The notes: generated by a model not told the origin, from the sequence alone. 64,000 bases of DNA from Brachyspira sp. (GCF_029258575.1 NZ_JARHYI010000121.1:1188-65187), one strand, 5' to 3'; positions 4,306 through 64,000 are shown, counted from the first letter of the stretch. Program-made: numbers and translations.

Positions 4306-4550
4306 GGGCGTTATATAAAACAATAAATTTAAAAAAACTAGGGTGGGTGTTTCATATTCTGTTTTGGCAGTAAAAAAGATAAATGTGAAATTTAATATAA
4401 GATTATAAGAAAATAGGGTGGGGATAGAAATAAAGTTTAAAAACTTATTTACATACCCCGCCCTTTATTATTTTCTATGTAATTTTGGAATTAAAATTTT
4501 AATAGTCTTTTTGTATAATTAGAAATTTGAGCCCCCGCCAAGTTTTTATT
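4306..4550 (+). repeat. Intergenic nested inverted-repeat element, copy 1
   Basis: G-tracts 4341-4347 and 4415-4423, C-tracts 4456-4464 and 4532-4539; the 18-mer CATACCCCGCCCTTTATT (4452-4469) recurs exactly at 55367-55384. Confidence 0.8.
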
Positions 4551-15128: not shown

Positions 15129-16757
15129 ATGAGAGAAATCGAGATTGAATTGCATGAAGCATCAGCTAGAAATAATATATTAGCTGTTGAAATCTTATTA
15201 AAAAATAAAAATATAGATGTTAATTTAAGTAATATAATAGGATTAACTCCATTAACACATGCATGCAGAGCAGGATATAAGGAAATAGTTGAATTACTTT
15301 TAAAAGCTGGAGCTGATCCTAATAAGGCTGATCAATTATATATAACTCCATTAATGAATGCCTGTGCAAATGGTCATACTGATATAGTTAGTATTTTAAT
15401 AAAATATGGGGCTTCTATAAATTTGAGTAATTGTAATAATGAAACTCCATTGCATTATGCATGTTCTGAAAATTATTTTGATATAATGAAAATACTTGTA
15501 GAAAATGGTGCCGATGTTAATGCCAAAACTGATATTAATGTTACACCTTTGATGTATTGCTGTCAAAAGTCAAATTTTGATGCGGTAAAATTTTTGATAG
15601 ATAATAATGCCAATATAGATGATTTTGATATATATGAAGAAACGGTATTATCATATGCCATATCAAGCGGTAATATCGATATAGTTGAATATATATTAAA
15701 TAGGGGAAATATAGAGATACCTAAATATTCTTTGACAATGGCTGCTACAAGTGGAAATTTATCATTAGTTCATTATATACATTCAAAATTGGGTATTAAT
15801 AATCATAATGTATTTTCAAGTGCTTTTATATCAGCAGCTTATAATGGGCATTTAGATGTTGTTAGATATTTCTTTGATAATTCTAGGAAAAAAGCTCCTG
15901 AAGCTTTAGCGGTTGCTGCTTCTGCTGGGCATAAGGATATAGTTAATTATTTTCTTATGAATAAAGTGCCTTTGAATGGTGTTACTGATAATGGAAAATC
16001 TGCTTTGATATCTGCTATAGAGATAGAAAATAAGGAAATAATAGATTTGCTTATAAAATACAATGTTGATGTTAATAAGTCTGATGATGATGATGTAACT
16101 CCTCTTATGTATGCATGTTATATAGGTAATATAGAAATAGTAAAAGTGTTGCTTGATAATAATGCTTATACTAATGCTTTAGACAGTATAGAAAGAAATG
16201 CTATGATACATGCTATTATAGCTGGAAATATAGATATTGTTGAGCTTCTTTTAATGAGAGGAATGACACTCAATAATGATAATGAATCTATTACTCCTTT
16301 GATGTGGGCTGTTATATATGATAATTTAAAATCTGTAAAATATTTGATAGAGAAGGGAGTTGATATTTATCAAACGGATATTAATGGATGGAATTCTTTC
16401 ATGTTTGCTTGTGCAAAAGGATATAATGATATTGTTTACTATATTTTAGAATTGTATCCTGATATTATTAATAAGTTAAGCAGAATTGGTGAAACTGCTT
16501 TGATGATAGCTTCAGATAATGGAAAAGTTGAAGTTGTTGAGTACTTATTAAAAAATAATGCCTCTGTAAAAGAAGAAAATTTTAATGGATATACTGCTTT
16601 ATATATAGCTTCTTCGAAAGGCTATTTTGAAATATGCGAACATTTGATAAAATATTATAAGATAGATGATTATACTTTTTCTAAGGAATATGATATTGCA
16701 AAAGAAAAGGGTTATAGCAGTATTATGAATTTATTCAATGATAAATTAAAATCTTAA
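15129..16757 (+). CDS. Cytoplasmic ankyrin-repeat protein
   Basis: Many TPL(T/M)xAC-type repeats over the whole length; no signal peptide. Confidence 0.92.
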   Translation: MREIEIELHEASARNNILAVEILLKNKNIDVNLSNIIGLTPLTHACRAGYKEIVELLLKAGADPNKADQLYITPLMNACANGHTDIVSILIKYGASINLSNCNNETPLHYACSENYFDIMKILVENGADVNAKTDINVTPLMYCCQKSNFDAVKFLIDNNANIDDFDIYEETVLSYAISSGNIDIVEYILNRGNIEIPKYSLTMAATSGNLSLVHYIHSKLGINNHNVFSSAFISAAYNGHLDVVRYFFDNSRKKAPEALAVAASAGHKDIVNYFLMNKVPLNGVTDNGKSALISAIEIENKEIIDLLIKYNVDVNKSDDDDVTPLMYACYIGNIEIVKVLLDNNAYTNALDSIERNAMIHAIIAGNIDIVELLLMRGMTLNNDNESITPLMWAVIYDNLKSVKYLIEKGVDIYQTDINGWNSFMFACAKGYNDIVYYILELYPDIINKLSRIGETALMIASDNGKVEVVEYLLKNNASVKEENFNGYTALYIASSKGYFEICEHLIKYYKIDDYTFSKEYDIAKEKGYSSIMNLFNDKLKS

Positions 16758-26045: not shown

Positions 26046-27494
26046 TTAAAAAGTTTTTTTATCTGATAAATAATTTTTAAAAATAGAAAATATAATATAA
26101 TCAATTTTTACTTCATCTTTTAAGAAATTATTATACATATAATCTAGTATTTCTTCATTTGTATTTATATTATCCAAACAAATATCATGTTTATATTTTA
26201 GAAAATCGTATAAATCTAATATTTCTAAAATTTTTACTGGATAAAATACAGAAGCTGTAAAATTAAGTATATCTTTAGAGTCAAAACTGATTAAATATTG
26301 ATATTCAAAATTAGGTTTTTTAGCTCTCATAGCATAACATAAAGTCATAGCAAGTCCATATCCGTAACCATAGTATTCATGATGAAGTCCTACAGCTAAA
26401 TTAATATCTTGATTATTAGATATCGAATATTTAAGATAGTTATATGAGTTTATGGAATGAGAATATATGTCATTATTAATATTAGAATTTTCTATAGGAA
26501 GATAATTTATTATTTCAGTTAAAGTAATATCATGCAATAATGCTGCTGTAGCCATATTAACAATTTCAATATAATCAAATTGCCTTATTCCTAATTTGAA
26601 TATATTATCTAATTTTGAAGTGTCTTTTATAAATTTATTTTTCTTGGAAATTTTTGTATAATACGGCATATACTCATTTTTCCATTTTGCTCTTATTTTG
26701 GAAAGTATACCCATATTGATATTCTTATTATAAAATATCATAAACTCTATTGTATTTATAAATAATCTATTACTATGATCTATAATATTATAGCCCATAA
26801 ATCCAATAGTATCTTTCAACATATCATCTTTTTCGTAATTCTTATTTAGTAATATAAAAGTACTTTCAGCAACACTTTTTATAAACTCTTCATAATTGAT
26901 ATTATATTTTTTAGAATTATTTATTTTGTCATCTGAATTTTCTGTGATATTGCTTATAACATTTATTCTTTGAAGAAGTCCTAATTTTATTAATATTTCA
27001 CCAATAATATTAGCGGCTTTACAGGTAAATTTATCTTTATTTTCTTCAGCTTCCAATTCTGTTATTAGACTTTTAATATTTTCTATTCTTTGATATTTGT
27101 TCATAGGTAAAATTTCTTCAAGCATTTTTTCTTGAATTTTACTTATATCTTCTGAAGGATCTTTACAATTGGTAAAAATAGAGTAGAAATAATCTTTATT
27201 ATTTAACTCATCTGGATTGGTAAAAAAATCAAGCATTTCCAAATAAGATTTATATATATAATATTCGGCATCTTTAAATAGAGGATTTTTTTTTATATTA
27301 CTTTCAAATAAATAATCAATTTTATTGCTTGGTATTATATTAATTACACCATTTTCATTTTTAGAAATAATTTCTATTTTATCCTTTAATATTACTTCTT
27401 TATAAAATTTTAATTTTTCTAATGGTATTTTTATGTAATTATCTAAATTGATTTCCATCAAACAACTCACACTATTAATATTTTCTTTTCGCAT
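26046..27494 (-). CDS. HD-GYP-like metal-dependent phosphohydrolase, paralogue 1
   Basis: DHSNR, LLHDI, HS, GLHHEYYGYGYG, ILDLYD; similar to 34874..36322. Confidence 0.7.
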   Translation of the reverse strand: MRKENINSVSCLMEINLDNYIKIPLEKLKFYKEVILKDKIEIISKNENGVINIIPSNKIDYLFESNIKKNPLFKDAEYYIYKSYLEMLDFFTNPDELNNKDYFYSIFTNCKDPSEDISKIQEKMLEEILPMNKYQRIENIKSLITELEAEENKDKFTCKAANIIGEILIKLGLLQRINVISNITENSDDKINNSKKYNINYEEFIKSVAESTFILLNKNYEKDDMLKDTIGFMGYNIIDHSNRLFINTIEFMIFYNKNINMGILSKIRAKWKNEYMPYYTKISKKNKFIKDTSKLDNIFKLGIRQFDYIEIVNMATAALLHDITLTEIINYLPIENSNINNDIYSHSINSYNYLKYSISNNQDINLAVGLHHEYYGYGYGLAMTLCYAMRAKKPNFEYQYLISFDSKDILNFTASVFYPVKILEILDLYDFLKYKHDICLDNINTNEEILDYMYNNFLKDEVKIDYIIFSIFKNYLSDKKTF

Positions 27495-32153: not shown

Positions 32154-34055
32154 ATGGAAAATTTGGATAATAATAATGAAATCAATAATGATTTAAATAA
32201 CTCTTCTAATGATCTGAGAAGTTCAAGCAGTATGCAAAGAGTAGATAAAATAAAAGAAGTAGAAGAAAATAAAAAATATATATTTAAAGTGGCAGTTGTA
32301 GCCTGTGCCATTGTATTTGTACTTCTTATTGGGGCAGGAATAATTGTAGGTTTGTTCTTATTTATAAAAGGCAAATCTGATATGGATAAATTGGTTAGAA
32401 ATTATGAAATATACAGTGAGGAAATATATAATAAAAGATACGGAGATAAAGTAGTAAGAGAAATGGTTAATAATCATACTGCTGATGTTAATGAAACAGG
32501 CAATAATAATGAAACTCCTTTATTTTATGCTGTTAAAAATAATAATATTAAAGCTGTGAAATTCTTAATAGAAAATAAAGCAGACACAGAAATAGTTAAT
32601 GATTCAGGAATTTCTCCTTTGTTATTGGCTATAAGCAATAATAATACAAAAATAGCAGAACTTCTTATAAAAGAAGGAAAAGCTAATGTATATGGTTCTT
32701 ATACTGGCAAATATTTAGATCATTATCCTATGTATTATGCAGTATCGCAAACTAATAAAGATATGATAAAACTTCTTTTAGATAATTCATTTGATTTAAA
32801 GAGAGAGCCTTTACTTTTAGGTTATGCTATTGAAAACAGTGATGAGAATATAGTTCGTTATTTAATAGATAATGGTGCGGATATTAATTATAAAGATGCT
32901 GATGGTATAACTATACTTTATAATTCTGTTTTATCTCTTAATCCAGCTTTAGTTGACTATTTCTTATCAAAAGGTGCCAAAATAGAGGAAGCAGGCATCA
33001 GTGATGTATATGGTAATATTATAATGGCTGCAGTAGGATCAAAATTTAATAATACAAGTTTAGCTCCTTCAGATTTAGTATTAATGCAGCAGAAGGCAGC
33101 AGATAGTGCTAAAATAACAGAGAAAATAATATCAAATATAGATAAAAATGTATTGAACAGATTGGTTAATGGTAAAAATGCATTATTAATAGCAAGCGGT
33201 AATTCATATATAGATACTGTAAAGGTTCTTCTTACAAATGGTGCTAATGTTAATTCATATGATAATGACGGATGGACTTCTTTAATGTATGCTGCTAATA
33301 ATGGAGATATTGAACTTGCTAAAGTATTAATAGAAAATAAAGCTAATGTTAATGCTGAAAGCTATGACGGACAAACTGCACTTTTATATGCTATGAATAG
33401 TCCTATAGAATCAAGTAGAAATGAAATGATAAAACTTCTTATAGAAAATAAGGCAAATATTAATGCAGAAGACATCAGAGGATTCAGTCCTTTGACTATT
33501 GCCGTTATGAATAATGATGTTGAGCTTACTAAATTACTAATAGCAAATAAGGCTAATTTATCTGTTGTAACTAAAGATGGAGAGAGTTTAATTGAATATG
33601 CTATTAATAATGATAATGTAGATTTACTTCAGATATTGGTAGAAAATGGTGCTGATATAAATTATGCTGGAATATCAAGTTATACTCCTTTGATGATAGC
33701 AGCAAAAAGTGGTGCAGAAAATATCGCTAGAATTTTATTAACACAGAAAGTAAATTTAAATTCTATTGATAAATATGGAAATACTGCTTTACATATTGCC
33801 GCTGAGAATTCAAAACTTCCTATAGTGAGAATGCTTTTAGAAAAGAAGCCTGATCTTAATATACAGAATCAGAATGGAGATACTCCTTTGCATAAGGCTG
33901 TTAATTCAGGCGATGTGGATATAGTGAGCGAATTAGTATTATCTGGAGCTGATGTTAGAATTAGAAATAATATAGGTAAATATCCTATAGACATAGCAAA
34001 AGATAATAATAATAGTTCTATATTCGAGATATTGAAAGAGGCTGAAGAAAAATAA
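32154..34055 (+). CDS. Membrane-anchored ankyrin-repeat protein
   Basis: Single TM near residues 43-72, then many repeats (ETPLFYAV, GWTSLMYAA, GNTALHIAA, GDTPLHKAV). Confidence 0.92.
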   Translation: MENLDNNNEINNDLNNSSNDLRSSSSMQRVDKIKEVEENKKYIFKVAVVACAIVFVLLIGAGIIVGLFLFIKGKSDMDKLVRNYEIYSEEIYNKRYGDKVVREMVNNHTADVNETGNNNETPLFYAVKNNNIKAVKFLIENKADTEIVNDSGISPLLLAISNNNTKIAELLIKEGKANVYGSYTGKYLDHYPMYYAVSQTNKDMIKLLLDNSFDLKREPLLLGYAIENSDENIVRYLIDNGADINYKDADGITILYNSVLSLNPALVDYFLSKGAKIEEAGISDVYGNIIMAAVGSKFNNTSLAPSDLVLMQQKAADSAKITEKIISNIDKNVLNRLVNGKNALLIASGNSYIDTVKVLLTNGANVNSYDNDGWTSLMYAANNGDIELAKVLIENKANVNAESYDGQTALLYAMNSPIESSRNEMIKLLIENKANINAEDIRGFSPLTIAVMNNDVELTKLLIANKANLSVVTKDGESLIEYAINNDNVDLLQILVENGADINYAGISSYTPLMIAAKSGAENIARILLTQKVNLNSIDKYGNTALHIAAENSKLPIVRMLLEKKPDLNIQNQNGDTPLHKAVNSGDVDIVSELVLSGADVRIRNNIGKYPIDIAKDNNNSSIFEILKEAEEK

Positions 34056-34873: not shown

Positions 34874-36322
34874 ATGTTCAAATCAATGAATAAATATTAT
34901 GAAATTAATTTTGATAAAATCTTAGAAATGAAAGAAATGATTATTAAAGAGGATATAGAACTTACCTGCGTTAATCCTAATGGTATAAGTATCATTGTAC
35001 CAGGAAATTCTGTTGAAATGCTTTTAGAACAAAAAGATAATATCTTTCTTAAAGATGCTAAATATTATATATCATCATTTTCAACTAAATTTTTTAATTT
35101 GAATAATCCTCAAACCAATAAAAATAATGTAGTAGATGGTTCGGATGATAATAAATATAGTGAATTTGAATATTTTTATCATATTTACAAAAATTGTGCT
35201 GCATCAAATGAAAAATTAAAATCAGCTAATAATGTACTTTTAGATAAGATAGTAAAAGAAAAAACAAATAATAGATTATATTTATTAAAACCAAATTTAG
35301 ATCAGTTAAAGTTAGAGTCTAAAGCTCATAAAGTTACTGCTGAAATAGCCGTAAATATAGAGCGTTTATTAACAGGTATGGGTATCATAGGCAGATTAGA
35401 TTTTATAAGGCATTTGAAATATATTAAAAGCTCATCTAAAAATCAAATGAATTCTACAGTAGCTGAAACTGATACTATGATTATAAATATAATGAGTTCT
35501 ATAGTGACATACTTGGAGAAAGAATATTTCTTCCGTGATATTTTTGATTCTATGGATATGCTCAATGACAGTAATATATTGAGTCATAGTAATAGAGTTT
35601 GTATAGTTATGATAGAGTTTTTATACTATTATAATAATATATTTAATAAAGGATTAAGTAGTAAATTAAGACAGGAATATAAGAATATTTATTTTGAAAA
35701 ATATAACACTATTTTAGATAAATTTAATCTTGTAAAGAGTATAGAAAAACTAGAAAATATTTATAAACTTGGAATAAGAAAATTTACAAATTCTGAGATA
35801 TTAAGTTATGCTATAGGTGCTTTTTATCATGATGTTGCTATGCTTAATATGATAGATTTTATTCCTACAGATGATTTTATTAAAGACGGAGATTTTAAAG
35901 ATTTCCATACAGCAAAGGCTTATTATTTTCTTAAATATGTATTGAGTCAAAAAGATGAATCTTGTTTAATAGCAGGGCTTCATCATGAATGTTATGGTTA
36001 TGGCAGCGGAATAATGAAGAATTTTTTTGATAAGAAGATTAATGATCCTAAACATAAAGTTGATTTTTTAATATCTTTTGAAACAGATGATGTAATTAAT
36101 GCTGAATGTTTTGCCTATTTTCCAGCTAAAATGTTTGAGGTTGTGGATATATATGATACTTTACTTTTTATGCATGGTGAAAGAAATAAAAATCCTCAGG
36201 AAGTAATATTATTTATGAGGAAAATGTTCACAGAGAGTAAAATAGCTATAGATCCTATCATATTTGACCTATTCATACAATTTTTATATGATGTTAAAGG
36301 TATAACTATAATTGAAGAATAA
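34874..36322 (+). CDS. HD-GYP-like metal-dependent phosphohydrolase, paralogue 2
   Basis: SHSNRV, FYHDV, HT, GLHHECYGYGSG, VVDIYD, IDPIIFDLF. Confidence 0.72.
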   Translation: MFKSMNKYYEINFDKILEMKEMIIKEDIELTCVNPNGISIIVPGNSVEMLLEQKDNIFLKDAKYYISSFSTKFFNLNNPQTNKNNVVDGSDDNKYSEFEYFYHIYKNCAASNEKLKSANNVLLDKIVKEKTNNRLYLLKPNLDQLKLESKAHKVTAEIAVNIERLLTGMGIIGRLDFIRHLKYIKSSSKNQMNSTVAETDTMIINIMSSIVTYLEKEYFFRDIFDSMDMLNDSNILSHSNRVCIVMIEFLYYYNNIFNKGLSSKLRQEYKNIYFEKYNTILDKFNLVKSIEKLENIYKLGIRKFTNSEILSYAIGAFYHDVAMLNMIDFIPTDDFIKDGDFKDFHTAKAYYFLKYVLSQKDESCLIAGLHHECYGYGSGIMKNFFDKKINDPKHKVDFLISFETDDVINAECFAYFPAKMFEVVDIYDTLLFMHGERNKNPQEVILFMRKMFTESKIAIDPIIFDLFIQFLYDVKGITIIEE

Positions 36323-55096: not shown

Positions 55097-55470
55097 ACGC
55101 ACGGTTAATAAAATTTTATATATAATTACATGCTATTATTAATTATTCTTTTATATTAAATTTTTTCTTCGTGCGTTAATTAGGCTATAAATTTAATTAA
55201 AATTTGGGTGGGAAGCTAATATGTTATAAATAAATATTAAATATAATAATAATTATCAATTCTAAAATAAGCAGCAAATATATAGGGGGGATTTAGAATA
55301 AAGCAAAAAATTAAAATTTTAATAAGATTATTTTATATATTTTATAATCATTTTTTTATCTATTTTCATACCCCGCCCTTTATTTTTTATTGTTTACTTA
55401 TCAATTTTAATTTAAATAAAGTTTTTTGCCATATTAGAAATAAATGTCCCCGCCCAAGTTTTTTTAATAT
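55097..55470 (+). repeat. Intergenic nested inverted-repeat element, copy 2, with extra ACGCACG/CGTGCGT inverted pair
   Basis: GGGTGGG 55206-55212, G6 55285-55290, CCCCGCCCT 55371-55379, CCCCGCCC 55448-55455; shares the 18-mer and flanks with copy 1. Confidence 0.8.
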
Positions 55471-55499: not shown

Positions 55500-56540
55500 T
55501 TATTTAAGGAATATTATATCATCTATATTAAAACCAAGATTAACTATATCATTTAATTTATAATTATTATTGTAACTATTTTTATCCAATCTCCAAGTGA
55601 TTTGATTGTTACTATTAATAGGTACTAAAGTTATTATATATGAGAACATGTCCTCTGTAATATTTGTTATTTTTGATTTTATATTATTTGTATTATCTTT
55701 GCAATCAAAAAAAGAATACGGACGCATTCCTATATAATTAGCATTTTCAGTATTTTTATTAAGTTCATTTATTATTAAAGTGATATTCCAATCAATGCAT
55801 TCAATTTTTTTATTATCAATAATTTTTATTTTTGAGAAATTTTTATATCCAGTAAGAAGTGCCGAGAAATAAGTTTTTGGATTTTCAAATAGATTATATT
55901 TAGAATCTATTATATCGAATTTTCCTTTATTTATTATTCCTATATTATTAGATAATCTATATACTTCATCTCTGTTATGCGATACAAATAGGGTAGTACC
56001 GTCAAATTCTTTTATACTTGATGCAATAAATTTTTCTAATTCCCATTTTATATGATGATCCAAAGCACTTAAAGGCTCGTCAAGTATTAATATATTGGGA
56101 GATGATACGAATATTCTAGCTAATGCTGTTCTTTGTTGCTCGCCTCCTGATATTTCTTTAGGCTTTTTATTTTTTATATGATGTATAAAAAATTTTTTCA
56201 TTATGTATTCTATATTAATACTATTTTTTTTATCTCTTATACCGCATTTAATATTTTCTTCAACAGTCATATTCGGAAATAAAGCATAATTTTGAAATAG
56301 GAAACCAACATTTCTTTTTTGAGGTTTTACATTAATCTTTTTTTTAGAATCATAAAAAATATTACCATTAAATTCTATATATCCTCTATCTGGTTTTTCT
56401 ATTCCAGCAATGCATTTTAAAACCATACTTTTACCGCTTCCAGATTCTCCAAGTATAGAAAACACTTCACTTTTTACTTCAAACTGTAAGTCCAAATCAA
56501 AATTAGACAGTTTCTTTTTTATATCAACTATTAAACTCAA
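55500..56540 (-). CDS. modC: Molybdate ABC transporter ATPase
   Basis: GESGSGKS, QNYALFPNMTV, ISGGEQQR, LDEPLSALD, SH; downstream of modAB. Confidence 0.92.
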   Translation of the reverse strand: MSLIVDIKKKLSNFDLDLQFEVKSEVFSILGESGSGKSMVLKCIAGIEKPDRGYIEFNGNIFYDSKKKINVKPQKRNVGFLFQNYALFPNMTVEENIKCGIRDKKNSINIEYIMKKFFIHHIKNKKPKEISGGEQQRTALARIFVSSPNILILDEPLSALDHHIKWELEKFIASSIKEFDGTTLFVSHNRDEVYRLSNNIGIINKGKFDIIDSKYNLFENPKTYFSALLTGYKNFSKIKIIDNKKIECIDWNITLIINELNKNTENANYIGMRPYSFFDCKDNTNNIKSKITNITEDMFSYIITLVPINSNNQITWRLDKNSYNNNYKLNDIVNLGFNIDDIIFLK

Positions 56541-56560
56541 TATAAAATCCTACAAATACA

Positions 56561-57229
56561 TTATAATCTTTTTTTTATGGCATCTGAAAGAGGAAGAACA
56601 ATATTCATCATCATTATACTTATGAATGATATCATAACTATTATAACAACCCATTTCAAAGCTAATTCCCTGTTTCCAGCCTGAACAGCAGTATAAACAG
56701 CTAATGACATAGTCTGTGTTTTATTTGGTATATTTCCAGCTATCATTATAGTAGCCCCAAATTCTCCCAAAGCCCTTGTAAAAGAAAGTATAGTACCTCC
56801 CAATATAGAGTGCCAAGTATTTGGAAGTATAATTCTCCAAAATATCCAATTTTCAGATTTACCCAATGTTTTAGCGGCATTTATAATATTTTTATCTATT
56901 TGTTCAAATGCACCTTTTGAAGTTCTGTACATTAATGGAAATGATACTATAAAAGATGCTAATATTGCCCCCTTTAATGTAAATACAAATTGAAAGCCCA
57001 ATTTTGATGCTATAGATCCTATGAAAGAATTTCGTCCGAAAAATATAAGCAGAAAAAAACCTACAACTGTTGGAGGAAGCACAAGCGGAAGTGTGAATAT
57101 TATATCAAATATAGATGAAAATTTTTTTATCTTTACTACAATAATAGCGGCATATATTCCAACAAAAAAAGTGATTATTGTGGAATAAAATGCCGTTTTT
57201 ATAGATAGTATTAAAGGAGTATATTCCAT
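56561..57229 (-). CDS. modB: Molybdate ABC transporter permease
   Basis: LPLVLPPTVVGF, FTRALGEFGAT.MIAGNIP.KTQT. Confidence 0.95.
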   Translation of the reverse strand: MEYTPLILSIKTAFYSTIITFFVGIYAAIIVVKIKKFSSIFDIIFTLPLVLPPTVVGFFLLIFFGRNSFIGSIASKLGFQFVFTLKGAILASFIVSFPLMYRTSKGAFEQIDKNIINAAKTLGKSENWIFWRIILPNTWHSILGGTILSFTRALGEFGATIMIAGNIPNKTQTMSLAVYTAVQAGNRELALKWVVIIVMISFISIMMMNIVLPLSDAIKKRL

Positions 57230-57233
57230 TATA

Positions 57234-58019
57234 TTATTGTACTACAGTAAAGCCATAGTTTTTGAATGTTTCTATTGATTTATCAGTAGAAATATAATCT
57301 ATAAATTTTTTAGCTTCTTCTTTATTTACAGATGATTTTACTATAGAAATAGGATAAATAACTTTTTTATGTGTGCCTTCAGGAGCCTCAGATATTATAT
57401 TTACATTTTTAGCTATTTTAGCATCAGTGGCATAAACTATACCGCAATCAACTTCACCTGTTTCAACCCAAGAAAGTACATTTCTAACATCAGAACCATA
57501 AACAGCTTTCTGCTTTGCAGCATCAAGTATAGACAAATTACTCAATATCTCTTCTGAGTACTGTCCTACAGGAACACTTTTAGGCTCTCCTAATCCTATT
57601 TTAGTAATATCAGCATTGGTTATATCTGTAAATGATTTTATATTTAAAGTTGAATTGCTTGGAGTAATCAATACAACTTTATTTTCAAGCAAATCTTTTC
57701 TTGTTTCAGTGTCTATTAAATCTTTTTCCTGAAGTGCATCCATTTGTTTTTGAGCTGCTGAGAAAAATATATCTGCTGGAGAACCTGCTTCTATTTGAGT
57801 TTGTAATGCTCCTGATGAAGCAAAAGAGAATATAACTTCAGTACCTGTTTCTTCTTTGTAATTATTAGCCAATTCTGTTAGAACATCTGTCAGACTTGCA
57901 GCTGCCAATATCAGAATTTCTTTATTTTCAGTATTGGCATTACTTTGAGATGTATTTTTAGTTCCGCATGCTATAAATGAATATGATATTAATAGAATTA
58001 AAAATATTAACTTTTTCAT
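57234..58019 (-). CDS. modA: Molybdate-binding lipoprotein
   Basis: Lipobox FIA-C; AAASL, FASSG.L..QIEAG.PADIF.SA, SVPVGQY, DVR.VL.WV. Confidence 0.95.
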   Translation of the reverse strand: MKKLIFLILLISYSFIACGTKNTSQSNANTENKEILILAAASLTDVLTELANNYKEETGTEVIFSFASSGALQTQIEAGSPADIFFSAAQKQMDALQEKDLIDTETRKDLLENKVVLITPSNSTLNIKSFTDITNADITKIGLGEPKSVPVGQYSEEILSNLSILDAAKQKAVYGSDVRNVLSWVETGEVDCGIVYATDAKIAKNVNIISEAPEGTHKKVIYPISIVKSSVNKEEAKKFIDYISTDKSIETFKNYGFTVVQ

Positions 58020-58089
58020 AAAATTACACCTTTAAAATTATTTTTGTTTTTATTATAAAAAATAAAAATTTTAAAATTATAAAAATATT

Positions 58090-58566
58090 TTAATGTCCTT
58101 CTCCTCTCATCATACTTATAATATGACCAAGCAAAGGAATCATTAAATTGGTACAGTATTCAGCACCTTTTTCGCTTCCGGGGAAATTGACAACAAATAC
58201 ATTATTATTTATTCCTGCATAACCTCTTGAAAGAACTGCAAACATAGTATCTTTTATAGATTCCTGCCTTAAATAATCGGATATACCTCTTACTTCCTTT
58301 TTACAGAATTCCATAGTGGCTTCAGGAGTTACATCCCTAGGAGATAAACCAGTTCCGCCTGTAGTGATTATAATATCAAATTTCTCTTTATTTTCTTTCA
58401 TAGCATTTAATATTATATCGTATTCATCTGGTATAATAATTTTTTCTATATTTTCTATTTGATCTTTTAAATTATCTTCAAGAGTCTTTACTATAACAGC
58501 ACCTGATTTATCTTCATATATGCCTTTAGATACTCTATCAGATACAGTAATAACAAGTATCTTCAA
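58090..58566 (-). CDS. mog: Molybdopterin adenylyltransferase (MogA/MoaB family), TTG start
   Basis: VITVSDR, EDKSG, TTGGTGLSPRDVTPEA, NFPGS. Confidence 0.9.
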   Translation of the reverse strand: MKILVITVSDRVSKGIYEDKSGAVIVKTLEDNLKDQIENIEKIIIPDEYDIILNAMKENKEKFDIIITTGGTGLSPRDVTPEATMEFCKKEVRGISDYLRQESIKDTMFAVLSRGYAGINNNVFVVNFPGSEKGAEYCTNLMIPLLGHIISMMRGEGH

Positions 58567-58987
58567 GTTTAATATCGCCTCCTTTTACAACTTTCACAAA
58601 TATTCCTTTTTTAGGCATAATGCAATCTCCTACCAATTGCTTTATATCGCATCCATGATGGCATGCTTTTCCTATTTTTGAAACTTCTAGTATAGTATCG
58701 CCTATATACATTTTAGTTCCTATAGGAAGTTTATAAAGCTCAACACCTTTTGTTGTGATATTTTCAGCAAAGTCTCCTGGTTTAAGTTCTGTTTTCATGT
58801 TGGTGTTTGTATATTCTATATCTTCAATAGCAAGTACTGAAACTTGTCTGTCTTTGAGCTTATCAAAATGTGCATCATTAAGAACACCTTTATCTTCTAT
58901 TAATGTTATTTTTTCTACAGGTATCTTTACTGTACCTCTATTTTGTGATATATTTAAAGAAATTAATTCAAAGTATTTTTTTTCCAT
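58538..58987 (-). CDS. MOSC domain protein
   Basis: DAHF...RQVS.LA.E, PGDFAENITT.G, GKACH..C, CIMPKKGIF.KV..GG.I. Confidence 0.9.
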   Translation of the reverse strand: MEKKYFELISLNISQNRGTVKIPVEKITLIEDKGVLNDAHFDKLKDRQVSVLAIEDIEYTNTNMKTELKPGDFAENITTKGVELYKLPIGTKMYIGDTILEVSKIGKACHHGCDIKQLVGDCIMPKKGIFVKVVKGGDIKLEDTCYYCI

Positions 58988-59145
58988 ACATTCAAATCCA
59001 ACATTAAAAAATCATATTATAGAATTTAATATAAAACTATAAAATATTCAATATCTATATAATTTTTTTTTAGAATTTTATTTAAAAATTACAAAAAAAT
59101 TATTATAATATTTATTGAGATATATTTATTGTATAAGGAAAGTAA

Positions 59146-60006
59146 ATGAATAATAAACAAATATTGGATAAGGCATTAGAACTTGTCAATTTGAATATAG
59201 AAACAGAATTAATAAAAATATTAAAAACTTCAGGATCCGTACCAAGAACATTTGATGCCTTTATGATAGTTTATAAAGAAGATAATAAACAAAAGAATAT
59301 TGGTACAATTGGCGGCGGATTATTAGAATTTGAAGCTATAAAAGATGCATATAATTTTTTAAACAATAAAGAAACTTCAAATAAAGAATATAATCTTACT
59401 CCTCAAGATGCAGGTGGAATAGGTATGGTATGCGGAGGAAGTGCTGAAATTTCATTTATATATTTGAATGATAATAAAGATATTATAAATGATTTGAAAA
59501 AAGAAATAGAATCTAAAGAAAGTAATGTTTATATATTTGGAGCGGGACATGTATCTTATGATTTGGTTGAAGTTTTATACAAAATAGGTTTTAATTGTAT
59601 TGTTATAGATGATAGAGATGAATTTGCCAATAAAGATAGATTTCCTAATGCAAGTAAAATAATAACAGAAGATTATGATAATGTATTTAATAAAATAAGT
59701 ATTACGGATAAAGATTATATAATTATAGTAACTAGAGGGCATTCTCATGATTATGTAGTAGAAAAGAATGCTTTAAAAACTAATGCATTATATATAGGAA
59801 TGATAGGAAGTAAGAAAAAAATCAAAACATTGCATGATAAACTCAAAGCAGAAGAAAATTATACTGATTATATGATGTCAAGAGTGCATGCTCCAATAGG
59901 TATAGCAATAGGTGCAGAGAATACAGAGGAAATAGCGATTAGTATAGCTGCGGAACTTATACTTGTAAGAGCAACAGCAGAAAATAGAAGGAAAGTAAAA
60001 AACTGA
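59146..60006 (+). CDS. xdhC: XdhC/CoxI family Moco-insertion chaperone
   Basis: SGSVPR, GTIGGG.LE, GMVCGG, IFGAGHVS, VTRGHSHD, YIGMIGSKKK, APIGI.IGAE..EEIAISI.AE. Confidence 0.9.
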   Translation: MNNKQILDKALELVNLNIETELIKILKTSGSVPRTFDAFMIVYKEDNKQKNIGTIGGGLLEFEAIKDAYNFLNNKETSNKEYNLTPQDAGGIGMVCGGSAEISFIYLNDNKDIINDLKKEIESKESNVYIFGAGHVSYDLVEVLYKIGFNCIVIDDRDEFANKDRFPNASKIITEDYDNVFNKISITDKDYIIIVTRGHSHDYVVEKNALKTNALYIGMIGSKKKIKTLHDKLKAEENYTDYMMSRVHAPIGIAIGAENTEEIAISIAAELILVRATAENRRKVKN

Positions 60007-60114
60007 TTTATATTATAATGTTAATTAAAAAAATTATAAAAATTGTGAGTGTCTAGTAACTTTAGTTGCTAGATGCATAATGTGAATAATTTTTATTTAT
60101 AAATAGGAGTTAAT

Positions 60115-61326
60115 ATGGCAAGAACTTTTTTACACCCTGATGAGGCTTTAGAATTGGTATTGAAAAACTCTGAAGATTATGGCAATGAAAAAATATCAGT
60201 GCTTGATTCTTATAATAGGGTTTTAGTTGATGACATTTATGCTTTGAATGATGACCCTCCTTTTAGTAAATCTTCTATGGATGGTTATGCCTATAGAAAA
60301 GAAGATGAAAATAGAGATAATTATGTATTAATTGAGGATAAAGTTGTATCGGCAGGATTTTGTGTAGATATTGATGTAAAAAGTGGAGAATGTGTGAAAA
60401 TAATGACAGGTGCTATGCTCCCTAAAGATTTTGATGCAGTTCAGAGGGTAGAGTGGACTGAAGAAAAAAAAGAAAATGGTAAAACTATTATTAATTTCAC
60501 TAAAAAAGAAATGTTTAATAATGTAATAAAAAAAGGCAATAATAAAAAAATAGGTGAAAAAATATTAGATAGAAAAATGCTTATGCCGAAAGATGCTGCG
60601 ATACTTGCAGGATTTGGCTATAGCAGTGTTGAAGTAAAAAAGAAAATTAGTACTGCTGTAATATCTACGGGTAATGAAATAGCAAATATAGGGGAATCTT
60701 TAAAAGAAGGTCAAATATATGATGCTAATGCTCCTATGCTTGTTTCCAGAACTTCAGCTTTATCATGCAGCAGCAAATTTTATGGTAAGGTTAATGATGA
60801 TGAAAAAGAGATAAAAGATGTATTATCAAAAGCATTGAATGAGAATGATATAGTTCTTATAAGCGGTGGAGTATCTATGGGAGATTTTGATTATGTTCAT
60901 AAGGAGTTATTAGAACTTGGAGTTAATCAAATATTTCATGGTATAGCTATGAAGCCCGGAAAACCTTTATTTTTTGGTAAATTAGGCAAGAAGGCTGTAT
61001 TTGCTTTACCTGGTAATACAGTTTCTTCTTTTATGACTTTTGAAATAATGGTTAAGCCTTATATATTAAAATGTTTGGGTGTAGATTATGATTCAAGTTA
61101 TATACAAGCTGTACTTTTTGAAGATTTTAAAAGAAAGGATACAGAAAGACTTGAGTATGTACCTGTTAATCTATTTTTTGATGAAACTAAATTATATGTC
61201 AAACTTATAAGATATAATAATTCTTCTATGATATCATCTTTTTCTGAGGCTAATGGAATATTAAAAATAGATATTGGTGTTTCTGATATCAATAAGGGGA
61301 GTATAGCAGATGTTAGATTCCTTTAA
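60115..61326 (+). CDS. moeA: Molybdopterin molybdotransferase
   Basis: PPFSKSSMDGYA, IMTGAMLP, STGNE, YDAN, SGGVSMGDFD, MKPGKP, ALPGN. Confidence 0.95.
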   Translation: MARTFLHPDEALELVLKNSEDYGNEKISVLDSYNRVLVDDIYALNDDPPFSKSSMDGYAYRKEDENRDNYVLIEDKVVSAGFCVDIDVKSGECVKIMTGAMLPKDFDAVQRVEWTEEKKENGKTIINFTKKEMFNNVIKKGNNKKIGEKILDRKMLMPKDAAILAGFGYSSVEVKKKISTAVISTGNEIANIGESLKEGQIYDANAPMLVSRTSALSCSSKFYGKVNDDEKEIKDVLSKALNENDIVLISGGVSMGDFDYVHKELLELGVNQIFHGIAMKPGKPLFFGKLGKKAVFALPGNTVSSFMTFEIMVKPYILKCLGVDYDSSYIQAVLFEDFKRKDTERLEYVPVNLFFDETKLYVKLIRYNNSSMISSFSEANGILKIDIGVSDINKGSIADVRFL

Positions 61327-62107
61327 TAGAGAAATAAATTATTTACGCATTTCTGTTACAGATAGATGTAATTTGAGATGTGTATATTGTATGCCTGAAG
61401 AAGGTATTATGAAAAAATCTCATCATCAGATTTTAACATATGAAGAAATATATAGTGTTGTAAAAGAGGCAGCAGAACTTGGAATAAAAAAAGTTAGACT
61501 TACAGGAGGAGAACCTTTAGTCAGAAAGAATATTGATGAATTAGTAGCTATGATTAGAAGTATAGAAAAAATAGAAACTATTGCTATGACTACTAACGCC
61601 GTTATGCTTTATGATATTGCAAAAAGGTTAAAAGAAGCTGGTCTTAATTCTATTAATATATCTCTTGATACTCTTGATAGTGAAAGATATAAATATATTA
61701 CAAGAGGGGGAAGTTTATATGATGCTATGAAAGGTATAAAAAAAGCATCAGAATTAGGTTTTCAATTAAAGATTAATGTAGTTATTTATGATGATAAAAC
61801 AAAAGAAGAACTTGCTTTGATAAATGAATATGCTTCAAATTTGAATGCCAAAGTTCAAACTATTCAGTATTATAATCTTAATGAACAGAAACTTGATGCT
61901 ATAGATTATGATAGACCTGCTAAATGTAAATTCTGTAATAGAATAAGATTATTGTCTGATGGATATTTATTAAGCTGTTTGCATAGTAATATAAAGTTTA
62001 AATTGGATTTTAATGATATAAGAAGTTCTATTATAAAATGTATAGATTATAAGCCTGAAAATGGTACTTATAGCGATGTGGAATCGCTTAGTATGATAGG
62101 CGGTTAA
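61310..62107 (+). CDS. moaA: GTP 3',8-cyclase (compact form)
   Basis: YLRISVTDRCNLRCVYC, RLTGGEPL, NISLDTL, CKFCNRIRL..DG...C, C-terminal MIGG. Confidence 0.92.
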   Translation: MLDSFNREINYLRISVTDRCNLRCVYCMPEEGIMKKSHHQILTYEEIYSVVKEAAELGIKKVRLTGGEPLVRKNIDELVAMIRSIEKIETIAMTTNAVMLYDIAKRLKEAGLNSINISLDTLDSERYKYITRGGSLYDAMKGIKKASELGFQLKINVVIYDDKTKEELALINEYASNLNAKVQTIQYYNLNEQKLDAIDYDRPAKCKFCNRIRLLSDGYLLSCLHSNIKFKLDFNDIRSSIIKCIDYKPENGTYSDVESLSMIGG

Positions 62108-62126
62108 TTAAAATTGAGGTTGAAAG

Positions 62127-62582
62127 ATGAGCGATAAATTAACACATATAGACGAAAGTGGTAATGCTAATATGGTGGATGTTGGAGATAAAGATATTGT
62201 AAAAAGAACTGCTGAGGCTGTTGGTAAAATATATTTATCTAAAGAAACTTTGAAACTAATAGAAGAAAATAATATAAAAAAAGGTGATGTTATATCTGTA
62301 GCTAGAATTGCAGGTATAATGGGAGCTAAACATACTTCTGAATTGATACCATTATGTCATAATATCAATATAGAGAAGGTTAGTTTAGACTTTACTATGG
62401 AAGAGGATTGTATACTCATAAAATCTTATTGTAGATGCAGTTATAAAACAGGTATTGAAATGGAAGCTTTAACTGCTGTTAGTATTGCTGCTCTTACTAT
62501 ATGGGATATGTGTAAGGCTGTAGATAAAAATATGAGAATATCAGATATTACACTTTTATCTAAAATCAAAAATATGCAATAA
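62127..62582 (+). CDS. moaC: Cyclic pyranopterin monophosphate synthase
   Basis: MVDVGDK, KKGDV, LIPLCH, TGIEMEAL, IWDMCKAVDK. Confidence 0.96.
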   Translation: MSDKLTHIDESGNANMVDVGDKDIVKRTAEAVGKIYLSKETLKLIEENNIKKGDVISVARIAGIMGAKHTSELIPLCHNINIEKVSLDFTMEEDCILIKSYCRCSYKTGIEMEALTAVSIAALTIWDMCKAVDKNMRISDITLLSKIKNMQ

Positions 62583-62610
62583 TTACTGATATATAATATA
62601 TCAGTAATTA
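62580..62610. terminator. Perfect 14-bp hairpin between convergent moaC and MCP genes
   Basis: TAATTACTGATATA-TAA-TATATCAGTAATTA followed by T-rich sequence. Confidence 0.75.
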
Positions 62611-62623
62611 TTATTTTTATTTT

Positions 62624-64000
62624 TTAATTGAAGTGGAAATAAGATACCTGTTTAACTATATTATTTGATTTATCTAGTACATCTCTGCTAGCATCAGCAC
62701 CTTCACTTGCTATTTTTGAAGTGTCCTGAGTTATTCTATTGATTTCTATTACAGCAGTATTAATTTCTGATACACTATTTTCTTCTTTTATTATGGCACT
62801 TGAAATTTCAGTTAATAGAGTTAGTACATCATTAACAGAACTTTCTATTTGATTTAATATATATGATGAAGCCATAACAGAAGCATTTCCGTTTTGTATT
62901 TTTTCTATAGTTTCATTTGCTATTGCTGTAATATCTTTTGCGGCATTTCCAACATTTATTGCTAGGTTTCTAACCTCACTAGCTACTACAGCAAAACCTT
63001 TTCCTTGATCCCCAGCACGTGCAGCTTCAACTGATGCATTCAAAGCCAATATATTAGTTTGAAATGCTATAGATTCTATTATATTTGTGATGTCTGATAT
63101 TTTTTTACTAGCCTCTGATATTTGAGCCATACTTTTTGATGTTTCACTTATGGCATTTACACCGTTTCTAGTAGCATTTGATACATTTTCACTCATATTT
63201 TTAGCATTACCAGCATTTTCTGCAGTTTCTTTTAATGATGAAAATACAAATTCTATAGATCTTGTTAATTGCTCCAATGCACTAGCCTGAGAGTTGGATC
63301 TGTCTGATAAATTTATGTTTCCATTTGTGATGATATTAACGGAGTTGTTTATTCCATTTATATCATCTTTCATATTGTATATAATATCTCCTAATTTATT
63401 TTGCATTTCATTAAGAGCTCTTATTACATTTCCAGTTTGATCTTTTTTATTTAATTCATTTTCATTGAAATGAGTATTAAAATTACCTTTAGACATGGAA
63501 TTTATTATAGATATTGTATTATATAATGTATTGGATATAGGTCTTACTATTAAAATAACTAATATAGCTTCCAAAGTTGATAGTATTATTAATACTGATA
63601 TAATGAGAATTAATAATTTTAATAATGATGAATATAATTCTTTATTCTTTATTTTTATAACTATATACCAATTGCTGTTTTTTATTTTCAATGATATATA
63701 AGAATTTTTTTTACCTATCCATTCATAGTGATTATTATTAATAATATCATTTTTATGAATAGATATTTTATTTTGATTGAATATATTTTCTTTTAAAATA
63801 TATCTGTCATTAGCATTGAATAAATATAACCCGTCTTTATTTATTATACTTAAATCATAATCATACTTTTTTATCTCTTCCAAGGCAGAATATATTATTT
63901 TTGAAAAATTAACATCAATACCTATTATACCCTGCAATTGTCCATTTGCATATATAGCTTTAGAAAATGTTATTACTACATCTTTGGTTATAGCATCTAT
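62624..64000 (-). CDS. Methyl-accepting chemotaxis protein, 5' end outside the window
   Basis: Frame stays open to the edge ([24 protein letters not shown]...); [37 protein letters not shown]. Confidence 0.93.

Follow-up and report, generated by a model that had tools for sequence, protein, structure and literature searches.

To our knowledge, molybdopterin (MPT) synthesis is taught as universally dependent on MoaD and MoaE. In the canonical system, the synthase MoaD2-MoaE2, together with MoeB (E. coli, 1FM0), converts cyclic pyranopterin monophosphate (cPMP) and two sulfurs into MPT, and the same reaction is proposed here for a small MOSC protein with three conserved cysteines, encoded in a molybdenum cofactor (Moco) gene cluster of a Brachyspira species. 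The cluster lies in a 64-kb stretch of DNA, which was analysed as a whole and is called the window below. MOSC proteins were named among the products of Moco operons by Iyer et al. in 2006 (PMC1779556). In 2009, Aklujkar et al. reported that Geobacter metallireducens carries moaD, moeB, and mosC without moaE, and stated that the functioning of nitrate reductase was not understood (PMC2700814). Shin et al. found MoaE to be absent from 14 of 14 acetogen genomes, including that of C. difficile 630 (PMC5039349). In 2016, Tang et al. described five Dehalobacter genomes without MoaD and MoaE but with MOSC genes inside the cofactor cluster, and a MOSC replacement for MPT synthase was proposed for these organisms (PMC4751268).

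The MoaE-less operons for Moco and the tungsten cofactor (Wco) in Dehalobacter (Dehre_2363/2365), Geobacter (mosC, GSU3145/Gmet_0302), and the acetogens contain the same small MOSC within a moaA-moaC-...-mog order, and both they and the Brachyspira cluster are without MPT synthase genes. The Brachyspira cluster differs from them in its single MOSC gene (Dehalobacter is reported with two paralogues), in its two divergent operons with xdhC and modABC, and in a short moaA whose product has 265 aa. In other words, the idea that MOSC fills the gap left by MPT synthase is not new, and Brachyspira is a further member of this group, from a new genus. A literature search on Brachyspira together with molybdenum or molybdopterin returned nothing relevant, and no Brachyspira entries were found in the supplementary tables of a survey of molybdenum utilisation (PMC6147048) or in those of Haft's preprint. 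As far as the literature searched shows, this is the first description of such a Moco operon in Brachyspira.

On the basis of sequence and gene neighbourhood, we suggest, with a probability of roughly 0.5, that the three-cysteine MOSC protein acts at the insertion of sulfur between cPMP and MPT, as a functional stand-in for MoaE. Five lines of evidence favour this proposal: the slot that the gene occupies, with moaC before it and mog after it, the fusions with each of these genes, its independence of any one class of client enzyme, the absence of moaE nearby, and the conserved cysteines and histidine.

The three-cysteine MOSC protein and its family

The cluster spans positions 55500-62582 and consists of nine genes in two divergent operons, about 7 kb in all, and every gene call is backed by Pfam and NCBIfam. 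The original prediction had placed modABC, mog, MOSC, xdhC, moeA, moaA, and moaC in one divergent cluster, and these models bear it out. The minus-strand operon reads MOSC-mog-modA-modB-modC, with MOSC as its first gene, and the plus-strand operon reads xdhC-moeA-moaA-moaC. The start of mog and the stop of MOSC overlap by 29 nt, as they do in B. murdochii and B. hampsonii.

The MOSC protein is a MOSC domain and nothing else: no additional domain was detected, and 149 aa is too short for one. Two cysteine motifs that had been predicted in it, CHHGC and CIMP, were located at C109-H-H-G-C113 and C122-I-M-P. When 20 homologues drawn from several phyla are aligned, C109, H110, C113, and C122 are invariant and define the pattern C-H-x2-C-x8-C, which was found in 127 of 150 family representatives. 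The GDFAEN motif (G71-N76) is likewise invariant among the 20 homologues, and the invariant polar residues include K21, D38, H40, R47, Q48, and K107. The NCBIfam model for the MoaC/MOSC fusion family (NF011069) scores 160.7 bits across its MOSC half.

The AlphaFold2 model of the protein is a MOSC beta-barrel (pLDDT 91.4). Its best Foldseek matches are YiiM of E. coli and Geobacillus and YuaD of B. subtilis (1ORU), with a probability of 1.00, an E value of 1e-8, and TMq of 0.72-0.83, the highest value being that of YuaD, at an identity of just 16-19%. A PDB search with the protein sequence gave no match, and one with the family profile gave only a weak match to YiiM (E = 0.022), in which C109 (IGKeCH) is paired with the canonical MOSC cysteine, that of the PRQPC motif in YiiM from G. 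stearothermophilus (5YHH). The barrel fold and a conserved cysteine are common to the Brachyspira protein and to YiiM, YuaD, and mARC (1O65, 5YHH, 1ORU, 6FW2), whereas the Brachyspira protein differs from them in its length of 149 aa, in having no extra domains, in two further invariant cysteines with a histidine, and in a context of biosynthesis instead of detoxification. The extra domains of these reductases are a C-terminal helical domain in YiiM and the MOSC_N beta-barrel in YcbX and mARC. It should be mentioned that MoaE, an alpha/beta hammerhead protein that takes its sulfur from the MoaD thiocarboxylate, is unrelated in both sequence and fold to the MOSC beta-barrel with its cysteine triad.

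The family is widespread. A genome scan with one genome per species found it in at least 594 species, and a HMMER search over 1.84 billion cluster representatives gave 787 clusters at 50% identity (E <= 1e-10). Its members come from Spirochaetota, Clostridia, Nitrospirota, Desulfovibrionaceae, Thermotogae, Melainabacteria, Dehalococcoidia, and one metagenome-assembled genome of Methanosarcinales; the Clostridia include C. difficile (locus L059), Clostridium magnum (L032), and Tissierella. Six loci (L010, L030, L040, L051, L058, and L066) carry two MOSC paralogues per cluster, often in tandem, whereas Brachyspira has one.

Gene neighbourhoods were counted in 80 genome loci of the family, the window excluded. 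Moco genes are frequent there (moaA in 52 loci, moaC in 50, mog in 48, and moeA in 38), and the usual order is moaA-moaC-MOSC-mog. Where MOSC is a stand-alone gene, moaC lies directly upstream in 33 of 75 cases and mog directly downstream in 31 of 75. The position directly after moaC is also the operon slot used by the canonical MPT synthase genes. Fusions join the same partners: nine MoaC-MOSC, two Mog-MOSC, and one MOSC-Mog fusion occur in the 80 genome loci, and among the best 150 cluster representatives there are 22 MOSC-Mog, 11 MoaC-MOSC, and three Mog-MOSC fusions, about a quarter of the total. Rarer fusions among these representatives combine MOSC with ThiF, XdhC, FdhD, a 5-formyltetrahydrofolate cyclo-ligase-family domain, HAD, TatD, or DUF2703. 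Two proteins of the cyclo-ligase type were seen, P0128 (352 aa) and P0207 (347 aa); as this family is ATP-dependent and pterin-binding, the fusion may hint at an accessory activation step.

Transporters for tungstate and molybdate also recur next to the family, as do MobA, MobB, FdhD, catalytic subunits of the dimethyl sulfoxide (DMSO) reductase type, and the tungsten enzyme aldehyde:ferredoxin oxidoreductase (AOR), and xdhC was present in just three of the 80 loci. Because clients of the DMSO reductase type and AOR recur and xdhC is rare, the three-cysteine MOSC family belongs to general pterin cofactor biosynthesis and is not bound to the maturation of xanthine-oxidase-family enzymes. No other conserved gene of unassigned function recurs across the family clusters; the largest families left unassigned proved to be transporters, clients, MobA/MobB, FdhD, and unrelated neighbours.

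MoaE, its partners, and client enzymes around the family

The original prediction had stated that the cluster is without moaD, moaE, and moeB and that no client enzyme is encoded in the window, and both statements held. Six-frame searches of the window with the MoaE and MoeB proteins of E. coli and with a profile of MoaD/ThiS, all three of which match their own Pfam families, found no MoaD, MoaE, or MoeB/ThiF protein. The best match (E = 0.06), to the S4 domain in a pseudouridine synthase, was rejected as spurious. No molybdoenzyme was present among the ten largest other open reading frames (ORFs) of the window.

Across 87 MOSC loci (1.34 Mb), translation in six frames gave no MoaE match even with the threshold set at E <= 1. 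The phmmer seed used is identical to PDB 1FM0_E and detects the MoaE proteins of S. aureus, M. tuberculosis, human, and Thermus at 1e-12 to 1e-23. This search, with its sensitivity checked on MoaE proteins of the PDB, replaced an earlier Pfam alignment of 147 small unassigned ORFs, which showed only families with at least two members and in which a single MoaE could be hidden. MoaD-like proteins ending in ..FPPVGGG occur in nine of 84 family loci and ThiF-family E1 proteins in seven; the two frequently lie side by side, and MoaE is missing there as well. Such pairs beside MoaE-less MOSC operons were seen in L064 (13796-14707), L042 (983-2101), L051 (17058-18006), and L147, and a MoaD-like/ThiF pair with MOSC and without MoaE is the pattern reported for Geobacter metallireducens. 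The thought that MoaD-like neighbours imply a hidden MoaE was rejected: none was found in the 87 loci, and some of the MoaD-like genes lie beside AOR (L058).

A metagenome scan anchored on MoaC served as a control and was passed through the same pipeline (80 loci, 576 kb). MOSC was present in 18 of the 80 loci and MoaE in 10, all among the 62 loci without MOSC; no locus had both, and 52 had neither, many of these 52 being on short contigs. The gene directly after moaC was MOSC in 11 loci and MoaD, ThiS, or MoaE in eight. When the control and the genome loci were pooled, Fisher's exact test gave p = 5e-5, a rough figure, the two sets differing in flank length.

B. hampsonii, B. innocens, and B. 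murdochii (CP001959) each carry all nine genes in an unchanged arrangement, and no gene of PF02391, PF02597, or PF00899 was found within 10 kb on either side of these three clusters. The MOSC protein of the window is 85% identical to that of B. hampsonii and 79% identical to that of B. murdochii, which places the window in Brachyspira. B. hampsonii shares the flanks of the window, namely a PepSY-like gene with a pseudouridine synthase gene to one side and outer-membrane protein and chemoreceptor genes to the other, whereas in B. murdochii and B. innocens the neighbours of the cluster are genes for a serine dehydratase and an amidohydrolase. The genomic context therefore differs between Brachyspira species, and the cluster has the character of an accessory unit complete in itself. 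A Brachyspira-like Logan contig (L086, 6046-11974), with a MOSC protein of 77% identity, has a co-linear order MOSC-mog-modA..modC-moeA-moaA-moaC without xdhC; its modB region is miscalled or disrupted. Since this contig keeps MOSC without xdhC, MOSC does not depend on xdhC.

Candidate roles of the MOSC protein

The Brachyspira cassette would form a compact accessory unit for molybdate uptake and Moco synthesis. cPMP would be made by MoaA and MoaC, MPT would be adenylated by Mog, molybdenum taken up by ModABC would be inserted by MoeA, and XdhC would pass the cofactor to a client of the xanthine oxidase family whose gene lies elsewhere. The cluster holds no canonical enzyme for the step from cPMP to MPT, in which the two dithiolene sulfurs are added; this step would most likely be done by the 149-aa MOSC protein or would at least need it. 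By analogy with the Moco-binding MOSC domains of YiiM and mARC, its beta-barrel may bind the pyranopterin phosphate, and because MOSC domains bind the pyranopterin cofactor with a cysteine at the metal, C109 would lie adjacent to the future dithiolene carbons. Together with C113, C122, and H110, it could carry sulfur either through a persulfide relay or at an iron-sulfur (Fe-S) or other metal site with three cysteine ligands that binds sulfide, and the C109 persulfide or the sulfide held at such a site on the triad would be in position for an attack on C2' and C1' of cPMP. A MoaD-like thiocarboxylate is a possible donor in those lineages that have a MoaD-like protein and ThiF. We infer this catalytic role and this sulfur chemistry from the gene content, operon position, and fusions described above and from the retention of the MOSC cysteine along with the additional Cys-Cys-His set. 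The stronger proposal, that the protein is a stand-alone MPT synthase that needs neither MoaD nor MoaE, holds cPMP in its barrel, and adds both dithiolene sulfurs from a persulfide on the cysteine triad or from sulfide bound to an Fe-S or metal site, is more tentative, and we would give it somewhat less than even odds.

Two roles had been offered in the original prediction: a replacement for MPT synthase, or sulfuration of Moco for a client of the Xdh family. The first is favoured, short of proof, by the moaC-[ ]-mog slot that holds across the family, by the MoaC and Mog fusions, and by moaE never being nearby. The second is disfavoured as the function of the family, given the few loci with xdhC, the DMSO reductase-type and AOR clients, and the contig L086; a role of MOSC specific to Xdh sulfuration is unlikely.

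Several observations weigh against a MOSC protein acting in place of MoaE. No experimental test of MOSC in MPT synthesis was found in the literature for any member of the family, and no solved structure of the three-cysteine subfamily was found in the PDB. It is around the cysteine triad that the pLDDT of the model is lowest (81, 72, and 85 in the blocks covering residues 101-130). No NifS-like protein, rhodanese, or MoaD that could donate sulfur was found in the window. The fusions to FdhD, XdhC, HAD, and the 5-formyltetrahydrofolate cyclo-ligase family suit a general role in Moco handling, or as a carrier, equally well. In the control taken alone, Fisher's exact test gave p = 0.11. The exclusivity of MOSC and MoaE holds at the level of the neighbourhood, not of the genome: a check of co-occurrence confined to neighbourhoods found no shared locus, though G. 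sulfurreducens is reported with moaE and mosC and without moaD and moeB (PMC2700814). Finally, as the search in Brachyspira covered the 64-kb window, canonical moaD and moaE may be encoded elsewhere in the genome.

This last point leads to the explanation that survives best among the alternatives, although we consider it unlikely. On this view, the Brachyspira genome has a canonical MPT synthase in another place (moaD/moaE, plus moeB or a different E1), and MOSC is an accessory factor, such as a carrier of Moco or MPT or a partner of XdhC. In the latter role, it would supply clients of the xanthine oxidase family with their terminal sulfido ligand, like a split version of the eukaryotic Moco sulfurase. 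A MOSC domain is tied to sulfur delivery to the pterin cofactor in the eukaryotic enzyme (C-terminal domain of ABA3/MOCOS), and xdhC, known from the bacterial system of XdhC and NifS4, is part of the Brachyspira cluster, where it is divergently paired with MOSC. The MOSC domain of the eukaryotic enzyme is reported to bind Moco and to accept sulfur (Anantharaman and Aravind 2002, as cited in later papers). The MOSC-XdhC and MOSC-FdhD fusions fit this explanation as well, as does the joint presence of moaE and mosC in G. sulfurreducens. Unlike the eukaryotic sulfurase, however, Brachyspira has no NifS-like domain or gene here: no class-V aminotransferase is present among the nine cluster genes, none is fused or adjacent to MOSC, and no NifS-like gene was found in the window. 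The family is also mostly without xanthine-oxidase-family clients, having mainly those of the DMSO reductase type and AOR beside it, and xdhC, found in only three of the 80 loci, is missing from the contig L086, which keeps MOSC-mog. A fusion to MoaC, which acts at an early step of the pathway, would be unexpected for a factor of terminal sulfuration. As for a canonical synthase elsewhere, the published genome-wide absence of MoaE in C. difficile and Dehalobacter lowers the prior for Brachyspira.

It is also conceivable, but improbable, that another, unrecognised protein converts cPMP to MPT and that MOSC acts elsewhere in the pathway, for example by guarding the oxygen-sensitive MPT dithiolene before adenylation or in metal selection. 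The tight coupling and fusion of MOSC to Mog would suit a hand-over of MPT to Mog, MOSC domains bind pterin or Moco in YiiM and mARC, and a cysteine desulfurase has been put forward as the substitute in acetogens (PMC5039349). The lack of a further unassigned conserved gene, both across the family clusters and in the Brachyspira cassette, argues against such an enzyme.

That MOSC is itself a Moco-dependent client, a minimal YiiM/mARC-like reductase (e.g., of N-hydroxylated bases) next to a separate gap in MPT synthesis, agrees with YiiM and YuaD being the best structural matches, with the retained canonical molybdenum-ligand cysteine, with the window holding no other client, and with comparative genomic surveys that count MOSC proteins as molybdoenzymes (PMC6147048), but it is very improbable, given that there is no YiiM C-terminal helical domain and no electron-transfer partner, that the subfamily is marked by a histidine and two additional cysteines, all invariant, that fusion to MoaC and Mog is systematic, that the gene lies inside biosynthesis operons beside other, bona fide clients, and that XdhC in the cluster implies another client.

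Coordinates, borders, and meaning of the Brachyspira cassette

The features of the cluster and its borders are collected in Table 1. Some of the assignments deserve comment. ModC scores 192 bits against TIGR02142 (modC_ABC), under the cut-off of that model. The XdhC-family product has both the XdhC_CoxI N-terminal domain and the XdhC_C Rossmann domain over the Pfam cut-offs, and it falls under the cut-offs of the equivalog models TIGR02964 (159.1 bits; cut-off 161.6) and NF045664, XdhC_rel_AOR (275.8 bits; cut-off 350). The moaA gene overlaps moeA by 17 nt. MoaA scores 246.8 bits against TIGR02666 (cut-off 284), and the short protein retains CxxxCxxC, a C-terminal CxxC-x13-C, and the terminal GG. 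MoaA of clostridial loci has about 320 aa, whereas other spirochaete loci share the short form; the match to the Mob_synth_C domain is sub-threshold (31.9 bits against 37.4).

Table 1. Genes and non-coding features of the Moco cluster in the Brachyspira window
Feature	Coordinates	Strand	Evidence
Dispersed intergenic repeat, G-tract and C-tract modules	55097..55470		second copy at 4306-4550 (pairwise alignment)
modC, molybdate ABC transporter ATPase, 346 aa	55500..56540	-	PF00005 111.6 bits; follows modA-modB
modB, molybdate ABC permease, 222 aa	56561..57229	-	TIGR02141 235.3 bits (cut-off 182.6)
modA, molybdate-binding lipoprotein, 261 aa	57234..58019	-	TIGR01256 216.1 bits (cut-off 62.5); PF13531
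mog/moaB-type molybdopterin adenylyltransferase, 158 aa	58090..58566	-	PF00994 89.9 bits; TIGR00177 111.7 bits (cut-off 85.4)
Small three-cysteine MOSC protein, 149 aa	58538..58987	-	PF03473 39.0 bits (cut-off 22.7)
AT-rich divergent promoter region, 158 nt, MOSC/xdhC interval	58988..59145		sequence
XdhC-family Moco chaperone, 286 aa	59146..60006	+	PF13478 135.8 bits; PF02625 30.1 bits
moeA, molybdopterin molybdotransferase, 403 aa	60115..61326	+	PF03453, PF00994, and PF03454 over cut-off
moaA, GTP 3',8-cyclase, short form, 265 aa	61310..62107	+	PF04055 125.5 bits
moaC, cyclic pyranopterin monophosphate synthase, 151 aa	62127..62582	+	PF01967 185.8 bits; TIGR00581 197.9 bits (cut-off 141.5)
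AT-rich intrinsic terminator hairpin	62578..62625	+	16-bp perfect stem (62578-62612), 3-nt loop, then U-run

The cluster had been described as bounded by a repeat and a terminator, and both borders were recovered. On the modC side, the border is the repeat, which shares the blocks GGGTGGG, CATACCCCGCCCTTTATT, and CCCCGCCCAAGTTTTT with its second copy. This dispersed element, with its modules GGGTGGG (G-tract) and CCCCGCCC (C-tract), is embedded in very AT-rich DNA. Its other copy has the RNase H gene on one side and opp genes on the other, and in B. murdochii these genes are found near the Moco cluster. On the moaC side, direct RNA folding shows a strong hairpin (-15.5 kcal/mol, z = -6.89, with none of 200 shuffled sequences equally stable), placed between moaC and a convergent chemoreceptor (MCP) gene. 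A scan with a G+C-based consensus for terminators did not pick it up because the hairpin is AT-rich. In the divergent interval, promoter-like hexamers occur on both strands (59016-59043 and 59081-59109), not above the level of chance, and an Rfam scan for a Moco riboswitch gave zero matches across the window. A look-up of public sequencing runs listed none for the cluster. Elsewhere in the window, two ORFs of 482 aa (26046-27494 and 34874-36322) have no Pfam match at E <= 0.001, and two large proteins (15129-16757 and 32154-34055) consist almost entirely of ankyrin repeats (Ank_2, 330 and 326 bits).

Many anaerobes have active molybdo- and tungsto-enzymes and no recognisable MoaE, among them acetogens, organohalide respirers, and probably this gut spirochaete. 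The Brachyspira window adds no new idea to this question and does not move it beyond the earlier examples, though the question is directly testable, and the cassette, with nine genes in 7 kb and a single MOSC, is a compact example suited to heterologous reconstitution. If the MOSC protein does act at the step from cPMP to MPT, there would be a second widespread route to a cofactor that serves in the cycling of carbon, nitrogen, and sulfur, the gaps that metabolic models show in this pathway would be corrected, and the inference of molybdenum and tungsten utilisation from genomes would change. If it is, moreover, a stand-alone synthase, a large share of anaerobic bacteria, with Brachyspira, clostridia, Nitrospirota, and Desulfovibrionaceae among them, would make Moco and Wco by a route that is not the one found in textbooks.

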